59,622 nt of DNA from Alphaproteobacteria bacterium (GTDB lineage: Bacteria > Pseudomonadota > Alphaproteobacteria > Puniceispirillales > UBA1172), in contig JABIWM010000080.1 of the NCBI GenBank assembly GCA_018701255.1, positions 1 to 59,622 of the forward strand. Direction: 5' to 3'. A program made the position numbers and the translations under genes. The notes below the pieces were generated by a model. That model was not told the origin of the DNA. It was given only the letters and a program-made list of their open reading frames with translations, and did not search any database. Of this stretch, positions 3 through 26,629 are shown in pieces; position 1 is the first letter of the stretch, and every line of letters begins with the position of its first letter.

Positions 3-221
3 ATTCATCACGCGCTAAATCAACTGGCGGCGGCAAAGCTGATCAACGGCTATCGTGGCCAGAGCGCTGGCAATATGGATGCAGTGGTTAATACCATCCG
101 CATCTTATCTGATCTGATGGCTGATCAGCCAGCGCTTCACATGATAGAAATCAATCCCCTGATCGTCACCGATAAGGCCGCTATTATTGCTGATGCGGTG
201 ATCCATCGGCTTACCGCATAA
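3..221 (+). CDS. 3' end of a gene entering from the left edge; its tail resembles ADP-forming acetate/acyl-CoA ligase (ATP-grasp type) family proteins (partial)
   Basis: Frame 3 is open from the window edge to TAA at 219-221 (...NGYRGQSAGNMDAVVNTIRILSDLMADQPALHMIEINPLIVTDKAAIIADAVIHRLTA*). The EINPL...DA.I ending is typical of that family. It is missing from the ORF track because it has no in-window start. Confidence 0.4.
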   Translation: MHHALNQLAAAKLINGYRGQSAGNMDAVVNTIRILSDLMADQPALHMIEINPLIVTDKAAIIADAVIHRLTA

Positions 222-1695
222 CAAACGGATTGCCAATTGGCGCATCCGAAATGTTGATCCATGCTGTTTTTGGGCGAGTGTAATCGTAAATGGCATCCAT
301 CCCGCTTTCACGGCCATAGCCGGAATCCTTATATCCGCCAAATGGTGCAATTGGCGATACCATCCGATAGGTATTGACCCAGACAATGCCGGCATGAACC
401 GATTGCGTCATCCGCATGGCACGCGCCTGATTGGTCGTAAAGATGCCTGCCGCAAGTCCGTATTTGCTATCATTTGCCAGATTTAGCACTTCTTCTTCGT
501 CATCAAACCGCATCACACTCAGCACAGGGCCAAACAGTTCCGTGTCAACAATAGTCAGTTTCTGATCCGGACAGGAAATAATTGTTGGCTCATAATACCA
601 GCCCTGATTAGGGGTGGTTGGCCGCTTACCGCCAGTCAGAATATCAGCGCCTTCGGCTTTCGCTATTTTGACCTGATTTTCAATATGATTGATCTGATCT
701 ATGGTTGCCAGTGGCCCCATCTGGGTGTCTTCTTCCAGTGGATCACCAATGCGAATCTGATTAACCTGCCCCAGCATGCGTTCGAGAAACGCATCAGCAA
801 TGCTATTATGCAGATACAGGCGTGAGCCAGCAACACAGCTCTGGCCACTTGCCCCGAAAATACCGGCAATCGACCCATTAACCGCGCTTTCGATATTGGC
901 ATCATCAAAAACGATGAATGGCGATTTGCCGCCTAGCTCAAGCGATACTTCGGCAAAGTTTTCAGCAGAATTACGCACCACATGCCGCGCCGCGCCAGTG
1001 CCGCCGGTAAAGCTGATCCGTGCTACTTTCGGATGCGAGGTCAGCACTTTGCCGCAAGGATCAGCATGGCCGGTAATAATATTGACCACGCCGGGGGGGA
1101 AACCGGCTTCTTGGATCAGTTTACCAAACTCAAGCATAGGTGCTGAGGCATGTTCGGATGCTTTCAGCACAACCGTATTACCCGCCGCCAGCGCCGGGCC
1201 AATTTTAACCGCTACCAGAAATAATTGTGAATTCCAAGGCACAACCGCCGCAACCACGCCAAGCGGTTCCCGAAACGTCATGGTCAACATGTCCGGCTTA
1301 TCAATGGGCAGAGTTTCACCATGAATTTTATCGGCGCATCCGGCATAATATTGAAAAAACTCGGCAATATATTTGGCTTGCCAGCGCGTTTCTTTTAGCA
1401 TTTTACCAGTATCAATGGTTTCTGACCGGCCTAATTCTTCTGACTTTTCTGCCAGCAATTCGGCCAGACGGCGCAAATACCGCCCACGTTCTGTTGGTGT
1501 TATTTTAGCCCATGGGCCTTGGGTAAACGCATGATGCGCGGCTTCAACGGCCTGATTAACATCGCTTTCTGTGGCTTCCGGAATATGGCACCATGGCTGT
1601 TCAGTGGTCGGATTGATGCTGGGGAATGTTTTACCGTCACTTGCGTCAACCCACGCGCCGTCAATCAGCATCTGATATGTGTTCTGATTTGCCAT
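211..1695 (-). CDS. NAD(P)-dependent aldehyde dehydrogenase
   Basis: ORF 211..1752. The ALDH catalytic motifs ELGGKSP and GQSCVAGSR are present. I moved the start to the ATG at 1695 (MANQNTYQMLIDG...), which has GGAGGA about 7 nt upstream. Confidence 0.9.
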   Translation of the reverse strand: MANQNTYQMLIDGAWVDASDGKTFPSINPTTEQPWCHIPEATESDVNQAVEAAHHAFTQGPWAKITPTERGRYLRRLAELLAEKSEELGRSETIDTGKMLKETRWQAKYIAEFFQYYAGCADKIHGETLPIDKPDMLTMTFREPLGVVAAVVPWNSQLFLVAVKIGPALAAGNTVVLKASEHASAPMLEFGKLIQEAGFPPGVVNIITGHADPCGKVLTSHPKVARISFTGGTGAARHVVRNSAENFAEVSLELGGKSPFIVFDDANIESAVNGSIAGIFGASGQSCVAGSRLYLHNSIADAFLERMLGQVNQIRIGDPLEEDTQMGPLATIDQINHIENQVKIAKAEGADILTGGKRPTTPNQGWYYEPTIISCPDQKLTIVDTELFGPVLSVMRFDDEEEVLNLANDSKYGLAAGIFTTNQARAMRMTQSVHAGIVWVNTYRMVSPIAPFGGYKDSGYGRESGMDAIYDYTRPKTAWINISDAPIGNPFVMR

Positions 1696-1855
1696 TACTG
1701 CTTCCTCCAATAACTTATATCTGGTTTCATCCATACTATGGTAGGAAGACACGAAACCCCAAGATTAATTTTTTAGCCATGTTTTGGCGAAAAAGTGAAA
1801 ACCTGTTAACCTTTCGCCAGTGACGATAGATAACAACATCCTGAATGAGGACATT

Positions 1856-2242
1856 ATGAAAACTGTCATCGGTGAGCCGTTAGTTATTGACGGACGGACA
1901 TTGTCTTTATCACGCGCCATCAGAGCAGGTGATTTTGTCTATTTGACTGGCCAGATTCCTATGCAGGATGGGGCGGTCATGACTCACGGCACAATAGAAG
2001 ACCAGACCCGTGTTGTTCTGGATGCTATCACCGAAACGCTGCATCTGGCTGATTGCGAATTACCGGATGTGGTAAAAGCGATGGTATGGTTGCGTGATCG
2101 TGCCGATTTTCCGGGATTTGATGCTGTTTATGCCGATTATTTTCCGCAAGACCCGCCCGCACGTTCCGCTGTGATTAGTGAGCTATTGGTCGATGTCCGG
2201 GTTGAGGTTGAGGTTGTTGCCTATCGGCCGCTACCGGCTTGA
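1856..2242 (+). CDS. RidA/YjgF/UK114-family enamine/imine deaminase
   Basis: ORF 1820..2242 opens with GTG. The ATG at 1856 (MKTVIGEP...) has GAGG 5 nt upstream. Size (~128 aa) and the ...GDFVYLTGQIP...ARSAV...VEVEVVA pattern are typical of RidA. Confidence 0.8.
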   Translation: MKTVIGEPLVIDGRTLSLSRAIRAGDFVYLTGQIPMQDGAVMTHGTIEDQTRVVLDAITETLHLADCELPDVVKAMVWLRDRADFPGFDAVYADYFPQDPPARSAVISELLVDVRVEVEVVAYRPLPA

Positions 2243-2254
2243 CGGTATCATAGC

Positions 2255-3064
2255 ATGACAATATTCAACTCAAATGGCACTTCAAACGGCACATATTATC
2301 AGCTGACTGGCAGTGGTAAATCGACCATTATTCTTATCCACGGGTTAGGGCTGAACCACCAGATGTGGCAACATCAGACCCCCGCGCTTGCCGCATATGG
2401 TCAGGTGCTATGTTATGATCTTTATGGGCATGGTCAATCCTCGCCGCCGCCTGAAAAACCCGGCCTGAGCATGTTTTCCCGTCAATTGGCAGAATTAATG
2501 GATGCGCTGAATATAGAGCAGGCAACGATTATGGGATTTTCGCTTGGCGGCATGATTGTTCGCCGCTTTGCCATGGATTATCCGGATAGAGCCGAAACCA
2601 TTGCTATCCTGCATTCCCCGCATCAGCGCACGCAAGCCGCCCATGATCATATTCAGAATAGAGTGTATCAGGCGCAAAAAGACGGCCCCGATGCAACGGT
2701 CGAAGACGCGCTTATCCGCTGGTTTACTGATGCCTTTCGCGCCAATGATCCACATACGCTGAATCAGATCAGACAATGGGTAAAAGCAAACGACAAAAAT
2801 ATCTATCCGGATATCTATCAGGTGCTGGTTAGCGGCGTGGATGAACTGGTCGCGCCTGAACCGCCCATATCCTGTCCGGCGCTAGTCATGACAGGTGACG
2901 AAGATTATGGCAATAATGCCGATATGAGCGCCGCCATTGCCGCCGAAATACCCAATGCCCGGCTTACCATTCTAAAAGGATTGCGGCATATGGCCATGAT
3001 GGAAGACCCCGACCGGTTTAATCAGGTACTGGTCGATTTTCTGGCCACACATCATTCTATTTAA
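2255..3064 (+). CDS. alpha/beta-fold hydrolase
   Basis: HG oxyanion motif (ILIHGLGLN) and nucleophile elbow GFSLGG. Length is 269 aa. It lies 12 nt downstream of the RidA gene, so it is probably in the same operon. Confidence 0.8.
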   Translation: MTIFNSNGTSNGTYYQLTGSGKSTIILIHGLGLNHQMWQHQTPALAAYGQVLCYDLYGHGQSSPPPEKPGLSMFSRQLAELMDALNIEQATIMGFSLGGMIVRRFAMDYPDRAETIAILHSPHQRTQAAHDHIQNRVYQAQKDGPDATVEDALIRWFTDAFRANDPHTLNQIRQWVKANDKNIYPDIYQVLVSGVDELVAPEPPISCPALVMTGDEDYGNNADMSAAIAAEIPNARLTILKGLRHMAMMEDPDRFNQVLVDFLATHHSI

Positions 3065-3711: not shown

Positions 3712-3731
3712 ACCGCAATATTGTAATCATT

Positions 3732-3791: not shown

Positions 3792-5234
3792 TTATCGGAC
3801 GGATGCGGTCAATTTAGCCAGATCAGGTAATGGCCGCATGGTTTCCGGATGCGATGCCAGCACCTGTTCAATCGCCAGACCAATGGCTAGTAATTTGCGA
3901 TCTGTCCCCGGCGCGCCTAGCAACTGAATCCCAAACGGCATGCCGTCCTGATCAACACCACATGGCACCACCAGCGAACATGCCATCACCATTGTTGGCG
4001 CATAGCTGAGCGCAAGCCATGTCATATATGTTGGCAATTTTACCTGATCAATCGTATCAATATATTTCGTTGTTTTCGCAAATGGCGCAACAGATGCCGC
4101 CGGACAGATCACAACATCCACCTCATCAAATAGCGATAACCATGCTCTGGCCAGAATTGTTTGCGTATGTGAGGCATCTGCCACATCAGCAAGCGTATAG
4201 GTCAGCGCCCTATCCACATTATCAACCACTAACGGGCTGATCACATCACGATGCGTATCGACATAATCCTTGAGGCCGGCAACATAACTAACCCCTCGCA
4301 AAATCTCAAAGCAGTCATGGATATTATCAAAAACCGGATCACGCCGCTGGCATTCTTTGAACGATGCGGCCAGATGCCCAACCCGTTGATCAAACAAGCC
4401 GCGTATCACATTCGCAACCGGTGCTACCCCCAAATCAGTGGAAATCGCAGCGGTCATCTGGCTTAAATCTGCTGGATCAAGCGATGCCGGCATATCCCCA
4501 CGCGCCGTATGTGAAAACGGATCACGCGGATCAACCGATGATTGCGCGTGTAATAACAATATGGCATCAGAAACATGTCTGGCCATAGGGCCCAGCACGG
4601 GAAATGGCGCCAGCCCAACCGCTTTATCAACATCTGGAACACAGCCGGGGCTAGGCCGGAAACCGACAATGCCGCAAAAACTGGCCGGTGTTCGTAAGCT
4701 ACCGCCAAAATCCGACCCTGACGCTAGCGGCACCATGCCCGCGGCCAGTGCGGCGGCTGACCCACCTGATGAGCCAGATGGCGTTTTATCAGTATCAAAC
4801 GGATTGGCGGATATGCCAAAAACATCATTCCATGTATTGCCGCCCGTGCCATGTTCCGGGGTGTTTGTTTTGCCAATAACAATACCGCCAGCTGATTTTA
4901 CCTTAGCCACCGACAAATCATCCTGATCAGGAATATGATCCTTGAACGGCAGAGCGCCATAGGTTGTTTTGATACCGGCAGTGGCTTCTAAATCCTTGAT
5001 GCCGACTGGTAATCCGGCTAATGCCCCGATATCTTCGTTTTTAAGACATCGGGCTTCGGCATCCCTAGCGCTATCCATAGCGCGGTCAAAATCCCGCGTG
5101 ACCATAGCATTTAACGCCGTATCAACCGCTTCAATCCGGTTGATTGATGCTTCCATTACTTCAACAGGTGAAAAATCACCTTTTTTAATACCTGCAACCA
5201 GCGCGGTTGCTGTCATATTGCAAAAATCTGTCAT
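3792..5234 (-). CDS. amidase-signature (AS) family amidase
   Basis: 480 aa with GSSGGSAAALAAG and GSDFGGSLRTPASFCG, the Ser-cisSer-Lys signature region. Confidence 0.9.
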   Translation of the reverse strand: MTDFCNMTATALVAGIKKGDFSPVEVMEASINRIEAVDTALNAMVTRDFDRAMDSARDAEARCLKNEDIGALAGLPVGIKDLEATAGIKTTYGALPFKDHIPDQDDLSVAKVKSAGGIVIGKTNTPEHGTGGNTWNDVFGISANPFDTDKTPSGSSGGSAAALAAGMVPLASGSDFGGSLRTPASFCGIVGFRPSPGCVPDVDKAVGLAPFPVLGPMARHVSDAILLLHAQSSVDPRDPFSHTARGDMPASLDPADLSQMTAAISTDLGVAPVANVIRGLFDQRVGHLAASFKECQRRDPVFDNIHDCFEILRGVSYVAGLKDYVDTHRDVISPLVVDNVDRALTYTLADVADASHTQTILARAWLSLFDEVDVVICPAASVAPFAKTTKYIDTIDQVKLPTYMTWLALSYAPTMVMACSLVVPCGVDQDGMPFGIQLLGAPGTDRKLLAIGLAIEQVLASHPETMRPLPDLAKLTASVR

Positions 5235-6750: not shown

Positions 6751-7740
6751 ATGCGGGCATTATCTGATGACCGAATACTGGATTTGGCGGTCGAATGGCA
6801 TCAATCAGGGCGTGATCTGGCTATCGCTATTGTTATTCAGACATGGGGATCATCCCCCCGGCCAGCCGGTAGCGTAATGATTATCCGTGATGACGGCCAC
6901 ATAGAAGGTTCAGTATCCGGCGGCTGTGTCGAAAGCGCCGTGATGCAGGCCGCTAATGACGTTATGATTAACGCCACTGCAACACAGCTTAATTTTGATG
7001 TCGCGGACGAAGACGCATGGCAAGTCGGGTTATCTTGTGGCGGCGCCATATCGGTTTGGATATGCGCCAGCACCGCCAAGACCAATCATATGGCTGATTT
7101 GTTTGTCTATATCAAAACGCAATTTGCTCAACGGCAAGCGGCGGTGATTGACTGTCATATCGACCAGCACATGATGACCATTGCCGGGACAGATCAGCCT
7201 GCCAACACACTATCCGGTGATGGCACATGTTTTCGTCTATCCGTTGACCCCCAGCCCCGGCTTTATATTATTGGTGCCGTGCATATTAGCCAGCATCTGG
7301 CACCAATGGCGATGGCGGCAGGGTTTGATGTCAGCGTCATTGACCCCCGCACCAGTTTTATAAATGAAGCCCGTTTTCCGGATACAACGCTGATCAAAGA
7401 CTGGCCAGATGATATTCTTGATGCGGCGGCACTAGATCATATGTCAGCTGTCGTAACGCTAACTCATGATCCGAAACTGGATGATGCTGCCTTGCGGATA
7501 GCGTTGCACCGCCCAGTATTCTATATCGCCAGTCTGGGCAGTCGCCGCACTCATGCCAAACGGTGCGACCGGTTAAAACAGGATGGCTTTACCGATGATC
7601 AACTGGCGCGGATAAGCGCACCAGCAGGATGTGATATCAAGGCCAGAACACCAGCGGAAATTGCTGTATCCATTCTGGCTGAGCTGATCGCGATACGCCG
7701 TGGGGCTGTGTCTGTATCTGCTGGTATGATGGGTGATTAA
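6751..7740 (+). CDS. xdhC: XdhC/CoxI-family molybdenum-cofactor insertion chaperone
   Basis: 329 aa with the typical N-terminal XdhC_CoxI region (...GSSPRPAGSVMIIRDDGHIEGSVSGGCVE...) and a C-terminal Rossmann-like XdhC_C region (RLYIIGAVHISQ...). Confidence 0.8.
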   Translation: MRALSDDRILDLAVEWHQSGRDLAIAIVIQTWGSSPRPAGSVMIIRDDGHIEGSVSGGCVESAVMQAANDVMINATATQLNFDVADEDAWQVGLSCGGAISVWICASTAKTNHMADLFVYIKTQFAQRQAAVIDCHIDQHMMTIAGTDQPANTLSGDGTCFRLSVDPQPRLYIIGAVHISQHLAPMAMAAGFDVSVIDPRTSFINEARFPDTTLIKDWPDDILDAAALDHMSAVVTLTHDPKLDDAALRIALHRPVFYIASLGSRRTHAKRCDRLKQDGFTDDQLARISAPAGCDIKARTPAEIAVSILAELIAIRRGAVSVSAGMMGD

Positions 7741-8383
7741 GGACATGCGTAATATTGGCGGAATCCTGTTGGCGGCCGGACAATCAACCCGCATGGGACG
7801 CAAAAACAAACTTCTTATGCCCGTGGATCACACATCCGAGCCCATGATCCGGATAGCGGCAAAAACCATGCTGGACAGCCAGCTGGATCAGTCCATGATT
7901 ATTCTGGGGCATGAAGCCGGATACCTTGCCGATGCGATATCGGATTTACCCATAGCACAACATGTTAATCCGAATTATGCCAAGGGCATGAGCCAGTCTA
8001 TTTGTCATGGGCTAGACCGGATCGGTGATCATGTCACCGATGTCATGATCCTGCTTGCCGATATGCCCAATATCACGGCGCAAATGATCAATGCGCTTTA
8101 TCAGCATCACATATCTGCCGCCAACCCTGACCATTCCATCACCTTACCGGTGATAAAATCAAAAACCCGGCAACCGCGCCCTGCTAATCCGGTGATATGG
8201 GGGAAGTCCTTTTTGCCGCTTTTGCGCCAGATCACAGGCGATAAAGGCGGCAGGGATATCATTACATCACATCCGCATGCCGTTAATCCGCTTGCTATAA
8301 ATGATGACAGATGCTTTCTTGATGCAGATACTATTGATGATCTGGCCATTATTTCTGATAGCCGCCAAACAAGAAGAATGTGA
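7733..8383 (+). CDS. MobA-like NTP transferase, probably molybdenum cofactor cytidylyltransferase (MocA-like)
   Basis: GGILLAAGQSTRMGRKNKLL nucleotide-binding N-terminus. The start is either GTG at 7733 (overlapping xdhC by 8 nt) or ATG at 7745. Confidence 0.7.
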   Translation: MIKDMRNIGGILLAAGQSTRMGRKNKLLMPVDHTSEPMIRIAAKTMLDSQLDQSMIILGHEAGYLADAISDLPIAQHVNPNYAKGMSQSICHGLDRIGDHVTDVMILLADMPNITAQMINALYQHHISAANPDHSITLPVIKSKTRQPRPANPVIWGKSFLPLLRQITGDKGGRDIITSHPHAVNPLAINDDRCFLDADTIDDLAIISDSRQTRRM

Positions 8384-8404: not shown

Positions 8405-8432
8405 ATTATTTGTTCGTATACAAACAAATAAT
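8405..8432. promoter_or_regulatory. 28-bp near-perfect palindrome upstream of fpr (operator candidate)
   Basis: ATTATTTGTTCGTA|TACAAACAAATAAT, with 13 of 14 positions pairing. It sits 60-87 nt upstream of the fpr ATG. It contains TTCGTATACAAACAAA, which is related to the motif at 15925, 21192 and 22776. Confidence 0.5.
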
Positions 8433-8491: not shown

Positions 8492-9271
8492 ATGAGCTTT
8501 ACCTGTCCTGATTCTGCTTTTTCAGAAACCGTTACCGAAGTTGAACATTATACAGACCGGCTGTTCCGGTTTCGGCTGACCCGTCCGGCCAGCTTTCGCT
8601 TCCGGTCGGGGGAGTTTGTGATGATCGGACTGCCCGGCGAAAAACCGGTATGGCGCGCTTATTCCATTGCTAGCCCATCATGGGATGAAACGATTGAGTT
8701 TTATTCAATTAAAGTCCCCGGCGGGCCGTTAACCGAACATCTGCAAAATATCAAGATTGGCGATAATGTCTGGTTCCGCAAAAAACCAACAGGCACTTTG
8801 GTGCTTGATGCGCTTCTGCCCGGTAAGCGGCTATGGATGATATCCACCGGCACCGGGTTTGCGCCATTCGCTTCGCTTATTCGTGATCCCGAAGCATATG
8901 AAAAATTCGAATCCCTGATCGTGACCCATACCTGTCGTGAGGCCGCTGAGTTGAGCTATTCTATCAATACCGTTGCTGCAACGAAAGCTGATCCGCTGGT
9001 TGGTGAGCTGGCTGACCGGCTTCACCTAGTAGCCACTACCACGCGCGAAGACACGTCATTCATGGGACGCATTACCGATTTAATGGAAAACGGTAAATTA
9101 TATACGCATCTGGGGGTGCCGCCGCTTGATCCCGAGCATGATCGCGTCATGATCTGTGGATCAATGGCCATGCTGAAAGACGTTAAAGCCATACTGGACA
9201 ATGCGAATTTCACCGAAGGTTCAAACAGTATGCCCGGTCAATATGTGGTTGAACGGGCATTTGTTGATTAA
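8492..9271 (+). CDS. fpr: ferredoxin/flavodoxin-NADP+ reductase
   Basis: 259 aa with the FAD motif RAYSIAS and the NADP motif GTGFAPF. The C-terminal ...YVVERAFVD ending is typical of bacterial Fpr. Confidence 0.85.
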   Translation: MSFTCPDSAFSETVTEVEHYTDRLFRFRLTRPASFRFRSGEFVMIGLPGEKPVWRAYSIASPSWDETIEFYSIKVPGGPLTEHLQNIKIGDNVWFRKKPTGTLVLDALLPGKRLWMISTGTGFAPFASLIRDPEAYEKFESLIVTHTCREAAELSYSINTVAATKADPLVGELADRLHLVATTTREDTSFMGRITDLMENGKLYTHLGVPPLDPEHDRVMICGSMAMLKDVKAILDNANFTEGSNSMPGQYVVERAFVD

Positions 9272-15891: not shown

Positions 15892-15921
15892 GTTATCTGA
15901 AAGCATAAGGATCAACATAAA

Positions 15922-15959
15922 CTGTTAGTACACAAACTAATTTGCTATTTTGCTAACAG
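15922..15959. promoter_or_regulatory. nested inverted repeats in the marR / hydroxylase divergent promoter (operator candidate)
   Basis: The outer inverted repeat is CTGTTAG (15922-15928) and CTAACAG (15953-15959). The inner palindrome is TTAGTacacaaACTAA at 15925-15940, containing GTACACAAA. Confidence 0.5.
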
Positions 15960-15988
15960 CCTGTCAATATCGATTTAAGGATGCCGCT

Positions 15989-17896: not shown

Positions 17897-18855
17897 GATA
17901 GCCATGGCACTACCTTCCGCCGGAATTCACCCACCAATCCTTGCGGCAGGAACAGCGTTAACAACACTAACGCCAGACCTGCAATCAACATATATGCTGT
18001 GGTAAAGGAACTAGACAGATCAATCAGATAAAACATGAACAATGTTCCGATAAATGGCCCCAACGCTGTTCCGGCACCGCCAAGCAGAACCCAGAGCAAC
18101 GGGAAAATAGAATACTGAACAGACGCAAAAGTCGCACCAGCATAGCCGAATAGCAACGCATATGCCGCCCCTGCCAATGCCGCCATCGTGCCAGACATAA
18201 TCACCGCCATCCATTTATGGAAATGAACATCATAGCCCAGCATATGGGTGCGTTCCTCATTCTCACGAATGGCAATCATGACACGGCCAAACCGGCTATG
18301 GACAAGCCGGATTGTCAGCAGCAGGCAAATGGAAAACAGAATAAGCGCCGCGTTATAGCGGTTCGTGGGCTGGCTTAAATCAAAACCTGCCATCACCCGT
18401 TCCGCCTGTTTAATGACAAAGCCCTCATCACCGCGTGTCCATTCGCCAAAATACAGAATGGTTAGAAAACCGGCCTGTGCAAACATTAGCGTCACAATCA
18501 TGAAAGACACTCCGCTTGTCCGCAAAGCAAGGAACCCGATACCGGCCGATACCACCACTCCCACCACTATTGCAGAAATCAGCGCCGGTTCCGGTGTCCA
18601 GCCAAGATGCACCATGGGCAAGCCCATGCCATACATACCAGCGGCAAAAAACATCGCATGGCCAAGGCTTAGCAAGCCGGTATAGCCAAATAGAATATTA
18701 TATCCCATCGCATAGCATGCCAGCACCATAATCCGCGCCAGATTGCCGTGATGATAGGCAGGCAGAATAAATTGCAGGATAAATAATGCCCCTATCAAAC
18801 CCAGATGAAAATAAAGCGATTTTCTGGCATCTGTCATTCCGGTTTTTTCTATCAT
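17893..18855 (-). CDS. HAAT-family ABC transporter permease (LivM-like)
   Basis: 320 aa polytopic protein with the GYTGLLSLGHAMFFAAG motif typical of LivM-type permeases. Confidence 0.85.
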   Translation of the reverse strand: MIEKTGMTDARKSLYFHLGLIGALFILQFILPAYHHGNLARIMVLACYAMGYNILFGYTGLLSLGHAMFFAAGMYGMGLPMVHLGWTPEPALISAIVVGVVVSAGIGFLALRTSGVSFMIVTLMFAQAGFLTILYFGEWTRGDEGFVIKQAERVMAGFDLSQPTNRYNAALILFSICLLLTIRLVHSRFGRVMIAIRENEERTHMLGYDVHFHKWMAVIMSGTMAALAGAAYALLFGYAGATFASVQYSIFPLLWVLLGGAGTALGPFIGTLFMFYLIDLSSSFTTAYMLIAGLALVLLTLFLPQGLVGEFRRKVVPWLS

Positions 18856-19778
18856 GGGTTATGCTTCCCCAAAAGCCCGGATGGACGGAAAATCAGCACA
18901 AATGTCACTATCAGCGTGGCAATAATCTTGGCCAGCGTAGGCGTGAAGAAAACGGAAATAAGCCCATCGCTCAACCCGATCAGCACCGCCGCAACAACCG
19001 TTCCGGCCAGACTGCCCAGACCGCCGATAATAACAACAATAAATGATAACAAAAGCGGATCATGTCCCATCAGATAATGCGCTTGCTGAATAGGAACAAT
19101 CAGCACCGCGGCAAGCGCCGCTAGTCCGGCACCTAGCCCGAACACAAGCGCATAAACCCGATCCACATTAATGCCATAAGCCTGTGCCACATCACGATCA
19201 AGTTGCGTGGCACGCATGATCAGCCCAATCCGTGTCCGCGTCATCAGCACCCATATAGCCAAGAGCAGAATAACCGCAAACCCGATAACAGCCAGTTTAT
19301 ATGTTGTCGTACCAAGCCCCCACGGCCAGTACATGGATAAACCGCTTTCTGTCCATTCAAACCATGGTATGGAAATGCGCTGATTAAAAGGCGGCTCAAC
19401 CGGTCTGGCGTTTGAGCCGTATGTCATCAGCGTGACTTGCTGAATAATATAGAGCAAGCCAATAGTCGCCACAATCGTGCGCTCAGGGTCATATTTGATA
19501 CGCTTTAAAATCATGGTATCGGCAACAACAGCCAGACTACCGACCAGCACCGGCGCAATAAATAATGCCGCAACAAATGATATTGCGGGATGCCCGCCAA
19601 TCATATCGGCCACAAACCATGCCAGCACCGCGCCTAGCATAAAAAACTCACCATGCGCGACATTAACCACGCGCATGACGCCGAACACAAGACTAAGCCC
19701 AACCGCCATCAGCGCCAACACGGCGGCGGTTACTAATCCTTCAATGCTACCGAGTATCAAATAAGGTGCAAGTTCCAT
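18852..19778 (-). CDS. HAAT-family ABC transporter permease (LivH-like)
   Basis: 308 aa polytopic protein with the LVFGVMRVVNVAHGEFFMLGA motif typical of LivH-type permeases. 4-nt overlap with the downstream permease. Confidence 0.85.
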   Translation of the reverse strand: MELAPYLILGSIEGLVTAAVLALMAVGLSLVFGVMRVVNVAHGEFFMLGAVLAWFVADMIGGHPAISFVAALFIAPVLVGSLAVVADTMILKRIKYDPERTIVATIGLLYIIQQVTLMTYGSNARPVEPPFNQRISIPWFEWTESGLSMYWPWGLGTTTYKLAVIGFAVILLLAIWVLMTRTRIGLIMRATQLDRDVAQAYGINVDRVYALVFGLGAGLAALAAVLIVPIQQAHYLMGHDPLLLSFIVVIIGGLGSLAGTVVAAVLIGLSDGLISVFFTPTLAKIIATLIVTFVLIFRPSGLLGKHNP

Positions 19779-19803
19779 GATTTACATGATCTATGAATAA
19801 AAA

Positions 19804-19846
19804 TGAAAAAAAATCTCCCCCCGCTTAATCGAAAACGGGGGAAGAC
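19804..19846 (-). terminator. intrinsic terminator/attenuator between the binding-protein gene and the permease genes
   Basis: On the - strand: TCTTCCCCCG-(12 nt loop)-CGGGGGGAGA followed at once by T8. The stem has a core of 6 G:C pairs and 3 more pairs after one mismatch. It lies between the stop at 19857 and the next start at 19778. Confidence 0.6.
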
Positions 19847-19856
19847 ATCAATGTGA

Positions 19857-21152
19857 TTAGAAGGATTGCTTCGTGTAATCCACTTCATCCGGATAAAGCG
19901 TATCTTCGATAGAAGTTGTATGAACCAGATCAAGTTTGCTGTTACTGACTTTGGTAATGTATTGATGACCAAAGACCTGATGGGTTTTCCCATTAAAGCG
20001 TTTTGCGCCTTGCGGATGCGCGTCGGAATGGGGCATATCAGACATGCTTTCAACCGCTTCGATCAGCTTTGCCCGATCACCGGTGCCGCGATATCCTGAT
20101 GCTTCCATGCCTGCCTTGACGATGTGCAGGGTTTCCCAGCAACCGAACATATGGGCATAAGTAGACACGTCTTTTGAATCCGAAACAGATGCACCATTTG
20201 CATCGACCCCGACAGCCGCCCGATATGCTTTATCATATTCGGACTGATTGGCCTGGGCGTAACGTGGATTGCCTTCCCAGAAATATGTGCCTTCTAGGAA
20301 CTCAAGCCCCGGGCTGGACAAATCTGTTGCTTCCAGACTGTCAATAAAGCCAAAGATTTCCGGACGTGAGCTACCAAAAAACTCACCCATTTCCTTAACA
20401 AAGGTAAGAACCGCTGGCCCCACCATCACATGATAGATGACTTCTGTGTCACGCGGGATTTTCGGGAAGTATTTTGTGAATGACGTTTCTGTTGGTGGAA
20501 TAGCAATTTTTTCAATCACCTGTCCGCCCTGTGCTTCGATAGCGGCAGAAAAATAATCTCTATGATCATGCCCGAAAGCAAAATCCGGATATACCATGGT
20601 TACTTTCTTACCCAGATTATTTGCAACGAACGGCGCCATGGCCTGAACCTGGCTTTTCACATCGGTGATGCCGGGCTGAAGCGTGTAACGGTTAAGCGCA
20701 CCGCTAGCTACATGATGGCCTTCTGATACAACAAAATATGGTATCTTTAATTCACCAGCGCGTGGGGCAGAACCATATACCACATGGCTAAATAGCGTAC
20801 CAAAAGCCAGATCAGCGTTATGCTGAGTTGCGAATTTTTCTACGACTTCGGCGCCACGCTTCGGGTCTGTTCCATCGTCTTCGGCAATGATTTCAACAGG
20901 CCGACCATTTATACCGCCAGCGTTATTGATTTTTTCAACAGCGGCCATGGTCGTGCGATCATACCAGCGGCCATAAGCAGCACCAATACCGGTGCGGTGA
21001 ACCTGAAAGCCAATCTTGATTGGCTCTGCGCTTTGTGTCTGGGCGTAACGACCCATCAACGGCATGGAAACAGCACCAAGTGCCAGACTAGCCGCCGCGC
21101 CCTTGATGATCTGACGACGTGGCGTCAATAAAGATTTTGATGTTTTTTTCAT
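19857..21152 (-). CDS. ABC transporter substrate-binding protein, Leu/Ile/Val-binding-protein family, with a Tat-like signal
   Basis: I moved the start to the ATG at 21152 (MKKTSKSLLTPRRQIIKGAAASLALGAV...), which has GGAGGA upstream. The twin-arginine RRQIIKG plus hydrophobic region looks Tat-like. The mature part has the type I periplasmic binding fold pattern. Confidence 0.85.
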   Translation of the reverse strand: MKKTSKSLLTPRRQIIKGAAASLALGAVSMPLMGRYAQTQSAEPIKIGFQVHRTGIGAAYGRWYDRTTMAAVEKINNAGGINGRPVEIIAEDDGTDPKRGAEVVEKFATQHNADLAFGTLFSHVVYGSAPRAGELKIPYFVVSEGHHVASGALNRYTLQPGITDVKSQVQAMAPFVANNLGKKVTMVYPDFAFGHDHRDYFSAAIEAQGGQVIEKIAIPPTETSFTKYFPKIPRDTEVIYHVMVGPAVLTFVKEMGEFFGSSRPEIFGFIDSLEATDLSSPGLEFLEGTYFWEGNPRYAQANQSEYDKAYRAAVGVDANGASVSDSKDVSTYAHMFGCWETLHIVKAGMEASGYRGTGDRAKLIEAVESMSDMPHSDAHPQGAKRFNGKTHQVFGHQYITKVSNSKLDLVHTTSIEDTLYPDEVDYTKQSF

Positions 21153-21191: not shown

Positions 21192-21210
21192 AACATATGT
21201 GTACAAACAG
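21192..21210. promoter_or_regulatory. operator-like motif upstream of the binding-protein gene
   Basis: The reverse complement of 21192-21207 reads TTTGTACACATATGTT. It lies 40-58 nt upstream of the ATG at 21152. Confidence 0.4.
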
Positions 21211-21235: not shown

Positions 21236-22720
21236 CTAGCCCCCTTTTGGCGCGGCAAGCAACCACAAACCCAGCCATGTGTAAGCAATCATAAAGAGCG
21301 CAATCGGCATCTGGCTGATCACCGTTTCAAATCGATTGCCATAACGCCCAGTCGCCAGATGATGCGCCACCAGCACGGATGCAATATGCCCCGCCACAAC
21401 AACACCTGCCTGGATTAACCAGATCATTCGCACCCAGTCGAGATGCTTAAAAAACCCGTCTGTCACATGGAATCCCTGCAACCCCAGAACATGCACATCC
21501 TTACCGAACATACCGTCAATAGCCAGCGCAACATATTGTGCCTCAACCAGCAATGATGGCAAATAATGCGCCACATGATAGGCCAGCGCGATAGGCAAAA
21601 GCGATGGCGCGTAAATGGCGATCAGTTCCGCCATAGAACACCGGTGTTGCGGTTGATCAGATGCCGCCACCATGCCCAGCCAGATAAGCGCTCCAAAAAT
21701 AACAATCAGCGCGATATTTGCCAGAACAATACCGGCAATCGTTGGGGTAATAATCGCTGAACGCCCCGGAAAATCCAGCGGGTTAATATCTATCCATTTC
21801 AGCCAGACAAAGGTTTCGTTGAACCCGTCAAAAGACCCGACCCCTAACAGCATGAGCAAAAAGATGGCCGCTGAGATATGCGGGCGCAATACCCCGATAT
21901 GCCGATGTGCCATCAACCGCCAGCCGGGTAGCCCAAACCGTACCACGCCAGCATGGACAGAAACCATGCGAAGCGATCCGAAACTGGCCATAATCATAGA
22001 GAAAAATTCCACATGCCGCGACCAGGTGCGAAAACCGAATATCAACATCCCGATCAGCGTGAACAGCCAGTATGCAAACATAAAACTGGCCAGCCGCGCC
22101 GGATCAGTGGGCGCCGGATCAGCCAGCGTGAAAACCGCAAAGCCGAATAGCAATAAAACCCCCGGCCAATGCGCCAACCATGATGGCCAGCCACGAACAC
22201 CGTGCCAGCCAGTTAGCCAGCGGAGGAAATGATAGGCAAATATCCACGGATTAATCCAGCGCCAGACGCTGAAAAACAATCCTTCCACCATGACCAGCCC
22301 CATCCAGAATACCGCCCAGAATCCTAATGTTAACGGATTCCGCAAAGGATCAGTGGTGCCGTACCAGCCTGCGGATAATAGCCAGAAAAAATACAGAAAT
22401 GCCGCCATATGAACATATCTGGCCAGCCGTTTCATGCGAAACTGCCGCCATAACTTGAGGCTATGATGTAATCCGGATGTTCCAGTGACCGGCATCAAAG
22501 CCAGCAACACTATCGTCAAACCAACAACAATCACCCCGCCAAGGATATATATATCCGTAGGCAGAAGCATGACAAAGCTTTGCCCCGACGCATGGGCATA
22601 GCATAATTTTACAGGCGCAATAACAGCCATCAACACAAGCATGAACAGCTTGCCCAGATGATGAGCCAGATGATTAAAGCAGCGCCAGCGATTGGTATTT
22701 TCTAATGCAATCATGATCAT
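21236..22720 (-). CDS. polytopic integral membrane protein of unknown function (~12 TM, Trp/His-rich)
   Basis: ORF 21236..22927. Its first ~70 codons overlap hyuA and the promoter, so I moved the start to ATG 22720 (or 22714). About a dozen hydrophobic segments. I recognised no family motif. Confidence 0.6.
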   Translation of the reverse strand: MIMIALENTNRWRCFNHLAHHLGKLFMLVLMAVIAPVKLCYAHASGQSFVMLLPTDIYILGGVIVVGLTIVLLALMPVTGTSGLHHSLKLWRQFRMKRLARYVHMAAFLYFFWLLSAGWYGTTDPLRNPLTLGFWAVFWMGLVMVEGLFFSVWRWINPWIFAYHFLRWLTGWHGVRGWPSWLAHWPGVLLLFGFAVFTLADPAPTDPARLASFMFAYWLFTLIGMLIFGFRTWSRHVEFFSMIMASFGSLRMVSVHAGVVRFGLPGWRLMAHRHIGVLRPHISAAIFLLMLLGVGSFDGFNETFVWLKWIDINPLDFPGRSAIITPTIAGIVLANIALIVIFGALIWLGMVAASDQPQHRCSMAELIAIYAPSLLPIALAYHVAHYLPSLLVEAQYVALAIDGMFGKDVHVLGLQGFHVTDGFFKHLDWVRMIWLIQAGVVVAGHIASVLVAHHLATGRYGNRFETVISQMPIALFMIAYTWLGLWLLAAPKGG

Positions 22721-22774: not shown

Positions 22775-22791
22775 ATTTGTACACAAATAAA
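22775..22791. promoter_or_regulatory. operator-like motif in the divergent membrane-protein / hyuA promoter
   Basis: ATTTGT-AC-ACAAAT (22775-22788). The extended reading TTTGTACACAAATAAA matches the motif at 15925, 21192 (reverse complement) and 8413. Confidence 0.45.
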
Positions 22792-22808: not shown

Positions 22809-24881
22809 ATGACTGAAACAACATTAGCGCAACATGTCATCGGCATTGATGTCGGTGGTACATTTACCGATTTGGTAATGCTGGAAACCCATAGCGGCGG
22901 CGTCACCATTGCCAAAGTGCCTACCACGCTGGATAATCAGGCCTATGGCGTGCTTAATGCGCTCAAAGAAGCCAACGCCGATCTGCGGGCTGTTGATTTG
23001 ATTATTCATGGAACGACCACCACCACTAATGCGGTGCTGGAACGCAAATTATCCCGCACCGGATTAATCACCACCCACGGGTTTCGGGATATTCTGGAAT
23101 TAGGACGGCGCACACGGCCGCAAGCCTATGGCATGAAAGGCATGTTTACGCCAATTATCCCGCGCCATTTGCGGCTTGAGGTAGCAGAACGGATGGATTA
23201 CGCCGGCCGTGTTGTCACCCCACTGGATAAGGACGGCATGCGGCAGGCGATCAGGCAATTGCTTGATGCTGGATGCGAATCGCTGGTGATCCATTTTCTG
23301 CATGCCTATGCCAATCCGGAACACGAAAAACAGGCGGCGGCCATAGCAGCCGAATTATGGCCGAATAATTACGTTACCATGGGGCATGCTTTGCTGTCAG
23401 AAAGCCGTGAATATGAACGCGGCGTGACCGCGGCGGTTAACGCCTCGGTTCAGCCATTGCTGGAACGCTATATCCAGCGGTTAGTGACAGAACTAAAAAG
23501 CAATGGATATCAGAGCGAAATGCTGGTGATGAATGGTAATGGCGGCACGGTATCCAGTCAGGATGTTGCGCGTGAAGCGGCCAAAACAGTCATGTCTGGC
23601 CCTGCATCAGGCGTTATTGCCGCCATGAATACCGGCAAGGCGGCAGGCCATAATCATCTGATCACCTATGATATGGGCGGCACGTCAACCGATGTATCCG
23701 TTATCAAAGACGGTAAGCCGTCTGTGTCTAATGAAATTGAAATAGAATATGCGATGCCCATCCATGTGCCGATGATTGACGTGCGAACAGTCGGCGCGGG
23801 CGGCGGTTCAATTGCCCGGGTGAATGCCGCCGGATTACTAGAAGTAGGCCCCGATAGCGCCGGTGCTGATCCCGGCCCTGTCTGTTATGGGCGCGGCGGC
23901 ACTGAGCCGACTATTTCTGATGCCAATATGATATTGGGGCGGCTTGAACTAAAGGCCGTCAAATCAGTTGAGGGCGGGATCAGTCTGGAGCATATCAAGG
24001 CGATATTCGATGAAAAACTAGGCCAGCATCTGAACATGGATGCGGTCGCCGCCGCCGATGCGGTGATCCGTGTCGCCAATGCCAAAATGGCTGGCGCTAT
24101 TCGTATGGTGCTGGTGTCGCTGGGGGCTGACCCGCGTGATTTCAGCCTGTTTGCTTTTGGCGGGGCAGGCCCATTACATGCGGCGGCGATTGCCAAAGAG
24201 CTTGGCATTCCCACGGTGCTTATTCCGGCACGGCCGGGGATTACAAACGCACTGGGATGCGTGGTTGCCGATTTACGTCAGGATTTTGTACAGACGATTA
24301 ATACGCCACTGGCAAAAATGGATGCCAAGCATCTGCATGATGTTTTTATCCAGCAGGAAAATCAGGGCAGAGCGATCATTGAGAAAGAACCTATCGATAT
24401 TGATGAAATGAGCATTAGCCGTAGTCTGGATATGCAATTTGTCGGGCAGACACATATTCTTAATGTCAATCTGGATCATATGGATTTGCCCGCCAGTCAG
24501 GATGAGATACAGGATTTATTCGAGCAGGTATATTTTAACCGTTTTCGCGTAAAGCTGGATAAAATCAACGCCAATATTGTCAATGTAAACACGTCCGTTA
24601 TCGGCAAACGGAAAGCATTTGATCTGTCACAATTGATAGAATCCGATGGCCGCAAATCCAGCCTTGCGGATGCCCAGATCGGCACGCGTCAGGTTCATGT
24701 TGCCGGACAATATGTTGATACACCGGTTTATCAGCGCGAATCCCTGCCGCTTGACGTATCTTTCATCGGGCCTGCCATGATACAGCAAATGGACACAACT
24801 ATTCTGGTTGAGCCGGGCGACCGCGTGTCTTCGGATGCCAAAGGCAATCTGTTTATCCATGTCGGGAAAGGAGCAGAATGA
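22809..24881 (+). CDS. hyuA: hydantoinase/oxoprolinase family protein, A (ATP-binding) subunit
   Basis: 690 aa with the N-terminal IGIDVGGTFTD and a second DMGGTSTD actin-like ATPase motif, typical of HyuA/OplA/CapA-type subunits. Confidence 0.9.
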   Translation: MTETTLAQHVIGIDVGGTFTDLVMLETHSGGVTIAKVPTTLDNQAYGVLNALKEANADLRAVDLIIHGTTTTTNAVLERKLSRTGLITTHGFRDILELGRRTRPQAYGMKGMFTPIIPRHLRLEVAERMDYAGRVVTPLDKDGMRQAIRQLLDAGCESLVIHFLHAYANPEHEKQAAAIAAELWPNNYVTMGHALLSESREYERGVTAAVNASVQPLLERYIQRLVTELKSNGYQSEMLVMNGNGGTVSSQDVAREAAKTVMSGPASGVIAAMNTGKAAGHNHLITYDMGGTSTDVSVIKDGKPSVSNEIEIEYAMPIHVPMIDVRTVGAGGGSIARVNAAGLLEVGPDSAGADPGPVCYGRGGTEPTISDANMILGRLELKAVKSVEGGISLEHIKAIFDEKLGQHLNMDAVAAADAVIRVANAKMAGAIRMVLVSLGADPRDFSLFAFGGAGPLHAAAIAKELGIPTVLIPARPGITNALGCVVADLRQDFVQTINTPLAKMDAKHLHDVFIQQENQGRAIIEKEPIDIDEMSISRSLDMQFVGQTHILNVNLDHMDLPASQDEIQDLFEQVYFNRFRVKLDKINANIVNVNTSVIGKRKAFDLSQLIESDGRKSSLADAQIGTRQVHVAGQYVDTPVYQRESLPLDVSFIGPAMIQQMDTTILVEPGDRVSSDAKGNLFIHVGKGAE

Positions 24882-26629
24882 TGACTATTGATCCTATCAC
24901 TCTCAGCGTCATTCAATTTGGATTACAACAGGTTTGTGACGAAATGGATTTAAGCTTTTCCCGCGCCGCTTTCTCGCCGGTTATAGCCGAAGCAAATGAC
25001 CGGTCTGACGGTATTTATTCGGCCGAAGACGGATCATTAATTGCTCAGGGCGCTGGCGGCTTGCCTGTTTTTGTTGGCACCATGCAATATTCCACACGCG
25101 TGCTGATCGAACGGATAAGTGACGGGATAACGCCAGCACCAAAACCTGATGATATCTATATTGTGAATGACCCCTATCTTGGCGGCACACATTTAATGGA
25201 TGTCCGTTTTGCGCGGCCATTTTACCGCCATGGCAAATTATTCTGCTGGCTATCCAACACTGGCCACTGGCCGGATACTGGCGGATCAGTCCCCGGCGGG
25301 TTTTCCGCCGCCGCGACCGCTGTTGAACAGGAAGGGTTGCGCCTGCCGCCCGTGCGATTATTCAAGGAAGGCCAGCTAGACGAAGAAATATACGCCATTA
25401 TATGCAGCAATATCCGTGTTGCGGATCAACGTATCGGTGATGTTATGGCACAGGCCGCCGCGCTCAAAGTCGGTGAAGACCGGCTAAACGCGCTGATGGA
25501 CAGATATGGCGATGATGTCATGGTGGCGGCGATTGCCGAATTGCGGACACGCGCGGCAACACAGATGCGGGCATTAATTCAGGATATTCCGGATGGTGTT
25601 TATTCATCTGTTGCATGGGTGGATAGTGACGGCGTTGTTGATGAGCCGTTGGCTATCCGGCTAGCTATTCATAAATCCGGTGATCAGCTTACCTTTGATT
25701 TTGCCGGATCAAGCCCGCCCTGTATCGGCCCCATGAACTCGGTTCTGGCAACAACCCTTAGCTCTGTTTATCTGGCGATGCGGCATATCTTTCCGGAAGT
25801 CCCGATCAGTGCCGGGGCGTTTGAGCCATTAGACGTTATTGGCGTGGAAAACACATTTCTGGATGCGCGCTATCCCCGACCAGTATCTGGTTGCGCGGCA
25901 GAAGTCAGCCAGCGTATAGCCGAAGCGGTATTTGCCGCATTGGTAGATGCCTTGCCAGATCGCGTTACCGCCGCCCCTGCTGGCACAAGCGGTAATTTTG
26001 CACTGGGCGGGCATAACGCCGAAAAAGGGCAGGACTTTGTCATGTATCAGCTGTCCGGCGGCGGCTATGGCGGCAACGCGGATCATGATGGTCTGGCCAA
26101 TGGATGCTCCACTATCGGCATTTCCAAAGCCCCGCCCATAGAAATCATGGAACAGAGCTTTCCTGTTCTTTATCACCGCTATGCCCTGCGCGAAGGATCA
26201 GGCGGTGCCGGTTGTCATCGTGGGGGGTTCGGGCTGGAATACGAAGTGGAATTACGCCACGCAGAAGCCCGCGCCAGTTTTGTCATGGATCATGGCCGCT
26301 ATGGCCCTCAAGGCGTGCGTGGCGGCAAGGATGGCGCGGTTAATACCGTTACTGTCTGGCGCAATGGAGAAGCATCCATCCCGCCGCATCTGTCAAAACA
26401 GCAGGATATTCCGCTTCAATCCGGTGATCGCGTGGTGGTAGCTACCCCCGGTGGCGGCGGATATGGTGATCCGTTAACGCGTGACCCTGACGCGGTCAAA
26501 ATGGATGTCATGCTGGAACGATATACCCATGATCAGGCAAAAGAATGGTTTGGGGTTATTATAACCACCGATGGTGAGGTGGATATAACCGCCACCAGAG
26601 AACAGCGGAAACAGGCGGCAACGCATTAA
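24878..26629 (+). CDS. hyuB: hydantoinase B/oxoprolinase family protein, B subunit
   Basis: 583 aa with the N-terminal DPITLSVIQ... pattern and a GGGYGDPL ending region typical of HyuB. ATGA overlap with hyuA, and GGAG upstream. Confidence 0.9.
   Translation: MMTIDPITLSVIQFGLQQVCDEMDLSFSRAAFSPVIAEANDRSDGIYSAEDGSLIAQGAGGLPVFVGTMQYSTRVLIERISDGITPAPKPDDIYIVNDPYLGGTHLMDVRFARPFYRHGKLFCWLSNTGHWPDTGGSVPGGFSAAATAVEQEGLRLPPVRLFKEGQLDEEIYAIICSNIRVADQRIGDVMAQAAALKVGEDRLNALMDRYGDDVMVAAIAELRTRAATQMRALIQDIPDGVYSSVAWVDSDGVVDEPLAIRLAIHKSGDQLTFDFAGSSPPCIGPMNSVLATTLSSVYLAMRHIFPEVPISAGAFEPLDVIGVENTFLDARYPRPVSGCAAEVSQRIAEAVFAALVDALPDRVTAAPAGTSGNFALGGHNAEKGQDFVMYQLSGGGYGGNADHDGLANGCSTIGISKAPPIEIMEQSFPVLYHRYALREGSGGAGCHRGGFGLEYEVELRHAEARASFVMDHGRYGPQGVRGGKDGAVNTVTVWRNGEASIPPHLSKQQDIPLQSGDRVVVATPGGGGYGDPLTRDPDAVKMDVMLERYTHDQAKEWFGVIITTDGEVDITATREQRKQAATH

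Follow-up and report, generated by a model that had tools for sequence, protein, structure and literature searches.

How is the reduced pyridine ring opened by a bacterial nicotinate cluster that carries no enamidase gene? This question is raised by contig JABIWM010000080.1 (assembly GCA_018701255.1), of which a stretch of 59,622 nt, here called the window, was analysed on the forward strand. The Eubacterium barkeri enzymes reportedly described by Alhapel et al. in 2006 include nicotinate dehydrogenase, 6-hydroxynicotinate reductase (Hnr) and enamidase (PDB 2VUN). In the window, the region at ~8.4–26.6 kb is probably a MarR-controlled regulon for nicotinate uptake and for reductive catabolism through 1,4,5,6-tetrahydro-6-oxonicotinate (THON), with the HyuA/HyuB pair (HyuAB) opening the ring. 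The reductive nicotinate pathway and the proteobacterial cluster are already known, and the new part is the swap of HyuAB for enamidase. The gene identities, the conservation, the either/or occurrence of enamidase and HyuAB, and the shared operator were computed here.

All sizeable open reading frames (ORFs) were profiled against Pfam and NCBIfam, the Pfam scan covering ORFs of at least 100 aa at 1–43 kb, and all genes listed in an initial annotation of the window were recovered by these scans at the positions given there. The cluster centres on the gene for a 483-aa Hnr homologue with 10 invariant cysteines (10812..12263, minus strand). It is preceded by the genes for the FAD subunit (15016..15918, minus strand; FAD_binding_5) and the fused 2Fe–2S and molybdopterin (MoFeS) subunit (12260..15058, minus strand, likely start 15019; MoCoBD_1/2 and Fer2_2) of an XDH-family hydroxylase, which together would form the nicotinate 6-hydroxylase. 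It is followed by the genes for a UPF0280/ApbE-like protein (9885..10790, minus strand; NCBIfam NF003322, 281.5 bits against a cut-off of 290; PF27030 in relatives) and, 3' of hnr-UPF0280, for copy b of a DUF1185/AA_synth protein (DUF1185b; PF06684; 9307..9888, minus strand; PDB 3BYQ, E 5.5e-56). A ferredoxin-NADP reductase-like flavoprotein (FNR; 8492..9271, plus strand; Pfam), whose gene stands beside the enamidase (Ena) or HyuAB genes in other genomes, lies to the left, next to XdhC and a MocA-like cytidylyltransferase (6751..8383, plus strand; Pfam), maturation factors for a molybdenum hydroxylase. To the right are a MarR-family regulator (15950..16462, plus strand, likely start ~15989; PF01047), a HAAT-type ABC importer with two ATPases, two permeases and a binding protein (16483..21152, minus strand, the binding protein at 19857–21152; Pfam), and a membrane protein of ~488 aa with ~10 transmembrane helices that matches no Pfam or NCBIfam family (21236..22702, minus strand). 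The genes for HyuA (22809..24881, plus strand) and HyuB (24878..26629, plus strand), subunits of the ATP-dependent lactam hydrolase family, close the cluster.

Among 8000 Hnr homologues scored, the 120 best listed are 72–100% identical to the window protein, and those bearing an NCBI name are all called 6-hydroxynicotinate reductase. The closest non-self match among those listed is 89% identical and belongs to Ca. Puniceispirillales (SAR116), and no Pfam, NCBIfam or PDB relative was found by the profile and PDB searches. The reductase step of the nicotinate-type pathway proposed in the initial annotation is encoded by this Hnr homologue, which bears the proposal out. Conservation was assessed in 80 species-representative genome loci around Hnr homologues (10-kb flanks, 1.42 Mb in total). 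UPF0280 is present in 75 of these, the MoFeS subunit in 73, adjoining hnr, the FAD subunit in 66, DUF1185b in 63, MarR in 57 and the ABC importer genes in 50–58. The gene order across the loci is constant, [membrane protein]-SBP-H-M-G-F-(PncA)-MarR-FAD-MoFeS-Hnr-UPF0280-DUF1185, where SBP denotes the substrate-binding protein. The membrane-protein gene lies directly 5' of the binding-protein gene in clusters of the HyuAB and the enamidase type alike (for example locus L081, 8737–10200, and locus L092, 8125–9534), and related plasmids annotate the MarR equivalent as NicR. The dedicated HAAT importer and the MarR regulation named in the initial annotation thus both belong to the conserved cluster.

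The core at 8.4–26.6 kb is the known proteobacterial nicotinate cluster except for the enamidase. In Azorhizobium caulinodans, Bradyrhizobium and the Bradyrhizobiaceae strain SG-6C, the hnr cluster covers the first three E. barkeri steps including enamidase (PMC3511419), and SG-6C, whose Hnr shares 42% identity with that of E. barkeri, grows on nicotinate via 6-hydroxynicotinate (PMC3511419). The window shares UPF0280, DUF1185b, the HAAT importer and the aerobic lifestyle with these bacteria, and the two unnamed unknown proteins of the published cluster (PMC3511419) would correspond to UPF0280 and DUF1185. The difference lies in the third step, which falls to HyuAB here and in about two-thirds of the clusters with a visible hydrolase.

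The absence of enamidase asserted by the initial annotation was confirmed in two ways. None of the ORFs of 100 aa or longer that the Pfam scan covered at 1–43 kb has an Amidohydro domain, and an enamidase orthologue (E 2.4e-111 to PDB 2VUN) used as tblastn query had no match in the whole 59.6-kb window. Among 26 PLSDB plasmids with an Hnr homologue, in which a hydrolase was sought within ~10 kb of hnr, 16 carry an enamidase orthologue, 10 carry a HyuB orthologue 69–79% identical to that of the window, and none carries both or neither; these counts include near-identical Sulfitobacter plasmids, so that the independent lineages are fewer than 26. In the 80 genome loci, HyuAB occurs 19 times, enamidase once (Roseovarius aestuarii), and both together never. 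The reciprocal comparison used 80 metagenomic contigs with HyuB orthologues 76–100% identical to that of the window. No enamidase was found in any of these 80 loci. Other genes of the cluster are present in 50 of the 62 contigs whose non-Hyu flank spans 3 kb or more, and where 4.5 kb or more is available 5' of hyuB, the pair adjoins cluster genes in about 45 of 47 contigs, the last figure being a hand count.

In addition, the two hydrolases occupy a common genomic slot. The arrangement '<Ena >FNR' of Sulfitobacter corresponds to '<HyuB <HyuA >FNR' in Mesorhizobium and others. FAD-MoFeS-HyuA-HyuB forms one operon in Sagittula and Pseudosulfitobacter, and hnr-UPF0280-DUF1185-hyuA-hyuB is contiguous in Pleomorphomonas and Neorhizobium. 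In a neighbour-joining tree of Hnr, which is rough and carries no support values, enamidase-type clusters appear in at least three separate places, for example Rhizobium etli (enamidase) beside R. lusitanum (HyuAB), and this scattering suggests that the two hydrolases were exchanged repeatedly. The hydroxylase module is also interchangeable between otherwise equivalent clusters: an annotated nicA/nicB hydroxylase replaces the XDH-type enzyme in the Neorhizobium cluster (L081, 3719–7770), and a pair of 2Fe–2S and large Mo subunits with nicAB-like organisation replaces it in a Comamonadaceae cluster (L082, 24652–28906), the remaining cluster being unaltered in both.

Reading of the intergenic regions revealed a 12-bp near-palindrome, TTNGTAYACAWA, with the half-sites TTTGTA/TACAAA. 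It has four matches in the window against 0.11 expected, exclusively in promoters of the cluster. The first copy (TTCGTATACAAA, 8413..8424) lies 5' of the ferredoxin-NADP reductase gene, the second (TTAGTACACAAA, 15925..15936) in the divergent hydroxylase/marR promoter region, the third (TTTGTACACATA on the minus strand, 21196..21207) 5' of the binding-protein gene, and the fourth (TTTGTACACAAA, 22776..22787) 21 nt before the hyuA start codon. The 80 other loci contain 29 matches against 0.6 in shuffles, mostly in the HyuA|FNR and MarR|FAD intergenic regions. Moreover, S. mediterraneus has a perfect palindrome between its enamidase and FNR genes, and copies are located 5' of nicAB and 5' of hnr in Neorhizobium. 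The element is probably the operator of the MarR/NicR-type regulator, and sites of the form TTTGTAYACAAA are candidate binding sites of the MarR protein. The Pseudomonas putida nic cluster, reportedly characterized by Jimenez et al. in 2008 with the NicAB hydroxylase and the MarR-type NicR, resembles this locus in that nicotinate hydroxylation comes first and a MarR-family repressor acts with a short palindromic operator. It differs in that the route after 6-hydroxynicotinate is oxidative there, whereas a reductive route through Hnr is encoded here; general Pfam scans of the locus ORFs, which included no dedicated NicC or NicX query, detected no flavin monooxygenase or dioxygenase domain of the NicC or NicX type.

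The either/or distribution, the common slot, the shared operator and the operon fusion with the hydroxylase make HyuAB the best candidate for the ring-opening enzyme, and they lend computational support to the suggestion of the initial annotation that this pair acts as ring opener. That HyuAB is the enamidase substitute is well supported by these genomic patterns. Several points tell against this assignment. Every link of the HyuAB pathway model is computational. The Hnr label rests on the names of homologues and on the 42% identity that the literature gives for a homologue from a related cluster. The four window sites that were counted are also those from which the operator pattern was drawn up, the other loci serving as the independent check. 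An enamidase could lie elsewhere in the host genome, the search having covered the 59.6-kb window. Moreover, 60 of the 80 genome loci show neither hydrolase inside the 10-kb flank; this flank limits the view, since hyuAB of the window is itself more than 10 kb from hnr and, in the window-type order, follows just past the membrane-protein gene, where many of the 80 loci end, but some loci might truly have neither. HyuAB also scores only 496.1 and 314.1 bits against the caprolactamase equivalog cut-off of 1000 (NF050156/NF050157). Finally, plasmid pSMED01 of S. medicae carries a HyuAB pair (60% and 70% identical) and a DUF1185 gene without hnr (L094, 12869–17581), which implies that the orthogroup or its near relatives may act on another lactam.

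Both Hyu subunits are full-length. HyuA contains Hydantoinase_A with its N- and C-terminal domains (Pfam E 1.4e-87, 3.3e-55 and 2.9e-11), and HyuB contains Hydantoinase_B (E 9.6e-155). HyuA scores 418 and 350 bits against the hydrolases (caprolactamase and N-methylhydantoinase) compared with 301 and 241 bits against the carboxylases, and HyuB scores 280.6 bits against caprolactamase beta, 231.7 against N-methylhydantoinase, 145.8 against acetophenone carboxylase and 66 against acetone carboxylase. By these scores the pair falls in the hydrolase branch and not in the acetone/acetophenone carboxylase branch. It shares the two-subunit HyuA/HyuB architecture with the hydantoinase/oxoprolinase family (CapAB, PDB 6YRA; N-methylhydantoinase; 5-oxoprolinase), and its closest solved relatives are lactam/hydantoin hydrolases, not carboxylases. 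It differs from this family in falling far under the caprolactamase cut-offs, so that the substrate cannot be read from homology, in forming a distinct orthogroup, and in its proposed substrate, the cyclic enamide THON. The hnr-linked members sampled are about 72–100% identical and almost always linked to nicotinate genes, and the paralogous HyuAB pair that the Neorhizobium plasmid carries as well reaches only 33–37% identity; this linkage and this distance set the hnr-linked pairs apart as an orthogroup.

It could be argued that HyuAB belongs to the regulon but acts on another lactam, such as 6-oxopiperidine-3-carboxylate formed by further reduction, or a side product, and that THON is opened by DUF1185, by the amidase after enamine hydration, or spontaneously. 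The substrates known for ATP-dependent HyuAB enzymes are mostly saturated lactams, and we know of no report of the cyclic enamide THON as a substrate of the HyuA/HyuB family; literature searches for it did not turn one up. Among the unknown proteins, DUF1185 is the one most tightly linked to hnr (63/80), and it accompanies enamidase-like and HyuAB genes outside hnr clusters. However, DUF1185 also co-occurs with the true enamidase and hence is not its replacement, and the strict either/or and the common slot point to one job for HyuAB and enamidase. Hydrolysis of a saturated lactam would, in addition, yield a beta-amino acid needing an aminotransferase, and the Pfam scans detected none in the cluster. 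We therefore regard action on another lactam as quite unlikely and retain THON as the proposed substrate of HyuAB. The searchable literature yielded no paper on HyuAB replacing enamidase in nicotinate breakdown, and none that connects 6-hydroxynicotinate or nicotinate with hydantoinase, caprolactamase or UPF0280.

Which heterocycle enters the pathway was addressed through the related clusters. The nicotinamidase/pyrazinamidase PncA is embedded in 20–34 of them, with 221.8 bits against an NCBI curated cut-off of 174; the window itself is without PncA. The sister clusters carry a true enamidase, the orthologue used in the tblastn search above. In the molybdenum cofactor (MoCo) region, the E. barkeri nicotinate dehydrogenase subunits NdhL and NdhM score 249 and 209 bits against the window hydroxylase, which together exceeds the 301 bits of the next MoCo-only match. 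Nicotinate or nicotinamide is the likely substrate, because PncA lies in the clusters, nicAB-type hydroxylases are swapped in, the Ndh subunits score well in the MoCo region, and SG-6C grows on nicotinate. The initial annotation had put another pyridine or pyrimidine carboxylate on an equal footing as the substrate, which is too cautious: PncA, the nicA/nicB swap and the sister enamidase favour nicotinate.

Another N-heterocyclic carboxylate (trigonelline-derived, picolinate, isonicotinate or a pyrimidine) would be compatible with a hydroxylase that reaches no NCBIfam equivalog cut-off and whose top PDB matches by total score are aldehyde oxidoreductases, a ranking that reflects the fused Fe–S domain. 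A Rieske oxygenase beside the transporter in some relatives also hints at additional feed-in substrates. This alternative appears very unlikely, as Hnr and the true enamidase orthologues define the pathway in the sister clusters, and the embedded PncA, the swapped-in hydroxylases annotated as or organised like nicA/nicB, the combined E. barkeri Mo subunit scores and the nicotinate growth of a strain with a homologous cluster (PMC3511419) all speak for nicotinate. An oxidative pyrimidine (barbiturase) or Rut-like pathway, which was suggested by the DUF1185, amidase, RidA and hydrolase genes, was ruled out by the identity of Hnr and by the enamidase and PncA of the sister clusters.

Two further observations concern the supply of substrate. 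In several roseobacter clusters, a gene for the alpha subunit of a Rieske ring-hydroxylating dioxygenase separates DUF1185 from the transporter (L084, 19529–20599; L093, 18058–19125; L100, 19534–20604). This enzyme could provide a feed-in, for example by trigonelline demethylation to nicotinate; no such gene is present in the window. In two other SAR116 contigs, PncA immediately precedes a 161-aa His-rich protein (L002, ~13003–13587; L007, ~13056–13637). The window has this 161-aa protein, with one transmembrane helix and a His-rich region and without a Pfam or NCBIfam family (6136–6621, minus strand), followed by a TauE-family membrane protein (5318–6076, minus strand; Pfam) and an amidase-signature enzyme (3792..5234, minus strand; Pfam), near the place of PncA in those contigs. 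By analogy of position, the amidase might be a stand-in for PncA as a nicotinamidase.

For the pathway as a whole, we infer what the substrates are, that ring opening depends on ATP, and which roles DUF1185, UPF0280 and the ferredoxin-NADP reductase play. Nicotinate would be taken up by the ABC importer and hydroxylated at C6 to 6-hydroxynicotinate by the XDH-family Mo hydroxylase, matured by XdhC and the MocA-like protein. The Hnr homologue would then reduce 6-hydroxynicotinate to THON. The E. barkeri Hnr is ferredoxin-dependent (EC 1.3.7.1); here the electrons would come from NADPH through the clustered ferredoxin-NADP reductase, the presumed electron supply for Hnr, and UPF0280 is probably the flavin transferase that attaches the covalent flavin of Hnr. 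In 5-oxoprolinase and caprolactamase, ATP activates the lactam carbonyl, after which hydrolysis follows. By analogy, HyuAB would activate the lactam carbonyl of THON with ATP and open the ring hydrolytically in the stead of enamidase, and the resulting enamine would shed ammonia to give 2-formylglutarate, spontaneously or aided by DUF1185.

The pathway thus proposed resembles the upper pathway of E. barkeri in having an XDH-family Mo hydroxylase and an Hnr homologue side by side, in the inferred intermediate THON, and in the inferred products 2-formylglutarate and ammonia. It differs in several respects. The window lacks enamidase and has the HyuAB pair in its genomic slot, and its Fe–S and MoCo subunits are fused, whereas the MoCo subunit of E. 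barkeri is split. Moreover, the host is aerobic, a ferredoxin-NADP reductase is part of the cluster, and no B12-dependent lower pathway accompanies it.

DUF1185 has solved structures, with a YjgF/chorismate-mutase-like fold. It co-occurs with true enamidase clusters, and on an Agrobacterium vitis plasmid (H50) it stands beside an enamidase-like amidohydrolase in a locus without hnr or hydroxylase. DUF1185 appears to be linked to the lactam hydrolase and not to the nicotinate genes, and its occurrence with enamidase, with HyuAB and with enamidase-like genes lacking hnr would tie it to ring opening or to the product of that step, not to Hnr. A more specific version of the HyuAB reading, which we offer tentatively as a possibility short of even chances, is that the hnr-linked HyuAB serves as a dedicated, ATP-driven analogue of enamidase whose opening of THON is irreversible, and that DUF1185 is a hitherto unrecognised enzyme that deaminates or decarboxylates the ring-opened enamine or beta-formyl acid.

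The left arm of the locus (1–6.6 kb) contains, in addition to the amidase and its neighbours, an aldehyde dehydrogenase (ALDH; 211..1752, minus strand, likely start 1695, 494 aa; PF00171, no NCBIfam equivalog reached), a RidA-family protein (1820..2242, plus strand, likely start 1856, 128 aa; Pfam/NCBIfam), an alpha/beta hydrolase whose top matches are PcaD and RutD, each below cut-off (2255..3064, plus strand), and copy a of DUF1185/AA_synth (DUF1185a; PF06684; 3109..3711, plus strand), which is 34% identical to copy b. At the left edge lies the 3' end of an ADP-forming acyl-CoA synthetase (1..221, coding 3–221, plus strand). The possible acyl-CoA ligase noted there in the initial annotation is real: the near-identical contig L088 identifies it as the last 72 codons of a 705-aa synthetase (CoA_binding_2/Succ_CoA_lig/ATP-grasp_5), and the left module continues beyond the window. 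DUF1185a forms its own orthogroup, 65–76% identical in other taxa. It was also considered as an orthologue of the second DUF1185 in other hnr operons, which is not clear at an identity of just 35–40%.

The initial annotation had gone further than HyuAB and let the amidase, RidA, the alpha/beta hydrolase and ALDH act jointly with it to replace enamidase and complete the pathway. RidA and the hydrolase would cleave the ring-opened enamine, as RutC/RutD do with aminoacrylate, oxidation of the aldehyde would fall to ALDH, and activation of the acid to the CoA synthetase. These genes lie side by side, and close SAR116 relatives keep the order XdhC–161-aa protein–TauE–amidase–DUF1185a–hydrolase–RidA–ALDH–CoA synthetase. 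The chemistry would fit the Azorhizobium route to glutarate and glutaryl-CoA reportedly described by Kitts et al. in 1992. Like the Rut pathway, the window has a RidA-family gene adjacent to an alpha/beta hydrolase gene, and ring opening of THON would yield a substituted 3-aminoacrylate, an enamine of the type on which RutC/RutD presumably act. Unlike that pathway, however, the pair scores far under the cut-offs (RidA against RutC TIGR03610, 55 bits, cut-off 169.1; hydrolase against RutD TIGR03611, 86.3 bits, cut-off 238.5), and the module to which it belongs also occurs without nicotinate genes.

The genes of CoA chemistry near such clusters bear on the same model. In S. pontiacus, genes for a CoA ligase, an acyl-CoA dehydrogenase, an enoyl-CoA hydratase and a 3-hydroxyacyl-CoA dehydrogenase stand beside the enamidase-type cluster. 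L088 has a comparable group of genes immediately to the left of the window (12–4999), comprising an enoyl-CoA hydratase, a 3-hydroxyacyl-CoA/carnitine-type dehydrogenase, a GbdR-like AraC regulator, a BKACE enzyme and an acyl-CoA dehydrogenase. The top NCBIfam matches of these genes left of the window are carnitine-type or generic, all below cut-off, and this tells against the joint model; the genes could represent a carnitine/betaine-type module or a lower glutaryl-CoA branch.

The distribution of the left arm also argues against the joint model. RidA, the alpha/beta hydrolase, DUF1185a, TauE, XdhC and the MocA-like protein are found in none of the 80 Hnr genome loci, in which ALDH and the amidase are represented by weak paralogues only. 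The module was compared between the window (211–3711), L088 (3830–10603) and three distant Alphaproteobacteria (L095, L096 and L097), where hnr, the hydroxylase and hyuAB are absent. A Dongiaceae bacterium has ALDH (minus strand)/RidA-hydrolase-DUF1185a with an acyl-CoA dehydrogenase and an ADP-forming CoA synthetase, and the surrounding genes include neither hnr nor the hydroxylase nor hyuAB. In an Anderseniella contig the unit is ALDH/RidA-hydrolase-CoA-transferase-DUF1185a with the synthetase a few genes off and no dehydrogenase, and a Hyphomicrobiales contig has ALDH/RidA-CoA-transferase-DUF1185a only, with neither dehydrogenase nor synthetase; both are without nicotinate genes. Furthermore, no operator copy was found at 1–8400 of the window, even when one mismatch was allowed. 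Since the module occurs without hnr elsewhere and the operator is absent from 1–8400, the left arm is, on genomic grounds, a separate portable module and not a set of enamidase substitutes.

The proposal that the amidase, RidA, the hydrolase and ALDH stand in for enamidase is thus not upheld: none of them is conserved by hnr outside close SAR116 relatives, and the amidase-signature enzyme, kept solely among these relatives, is lineage-specific without a conserved link to hnr. We judge the joint model rather unlikely and favour HyuAB as the substitute for enamidase. The left module could contribute lower steps toward glutaryl-CoA (enamine/imine handling, aldehyde oxidation, CoA activation and acyl-CoA dehydrogenation), but nothing ties it to the regulon.

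If HyuAB opens THON, many genes of marine and rhizobial Alphaproteobacteria that currently carry the names N-methylhydantoinase, acetophenone carboxylase or generic hydantoinase/oxoprolinase would acquire a specific function, and a cyclic enamide would join the substrates of the ATP-dependent lactamase family. The enamidase form of the reductive nicotinate pathway would then be the minority among the clusters sampled (17 enamidase versus 30 HyuAB), and HyuAB with DUF1185, should the latter act on the opened ring, would represent a new enzymatic solution to cyclic enamide cleavage. For oligotrophic marine bacteria such as SAR116 and roseobacters, the expense of ATP might pay off in the scavenging of very dilute vitamin B3, whose turnover by these abundant ocean bacteria is suggested by the clusters. 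The analysis also provides leads for the DUF1185, UPF0280 and 10-transmembrane-helix membrane protein families, and the 12-bp element is put forward as a candidate NicR-type operator.

Neither the Rfam scan nor the tRNA scan gave a match in the window. The catabolic region reaches its right limit at ~26.6 kb, beyond which lie housekeeping genes, including folE, trkH, hsp33, argF, argD and dcd. Outside the nicotinate locus, at 38225–41843 on the minus strand, a 464-aa ORF without a Pfam match stands beside a 686-aa subtilase-family protease.

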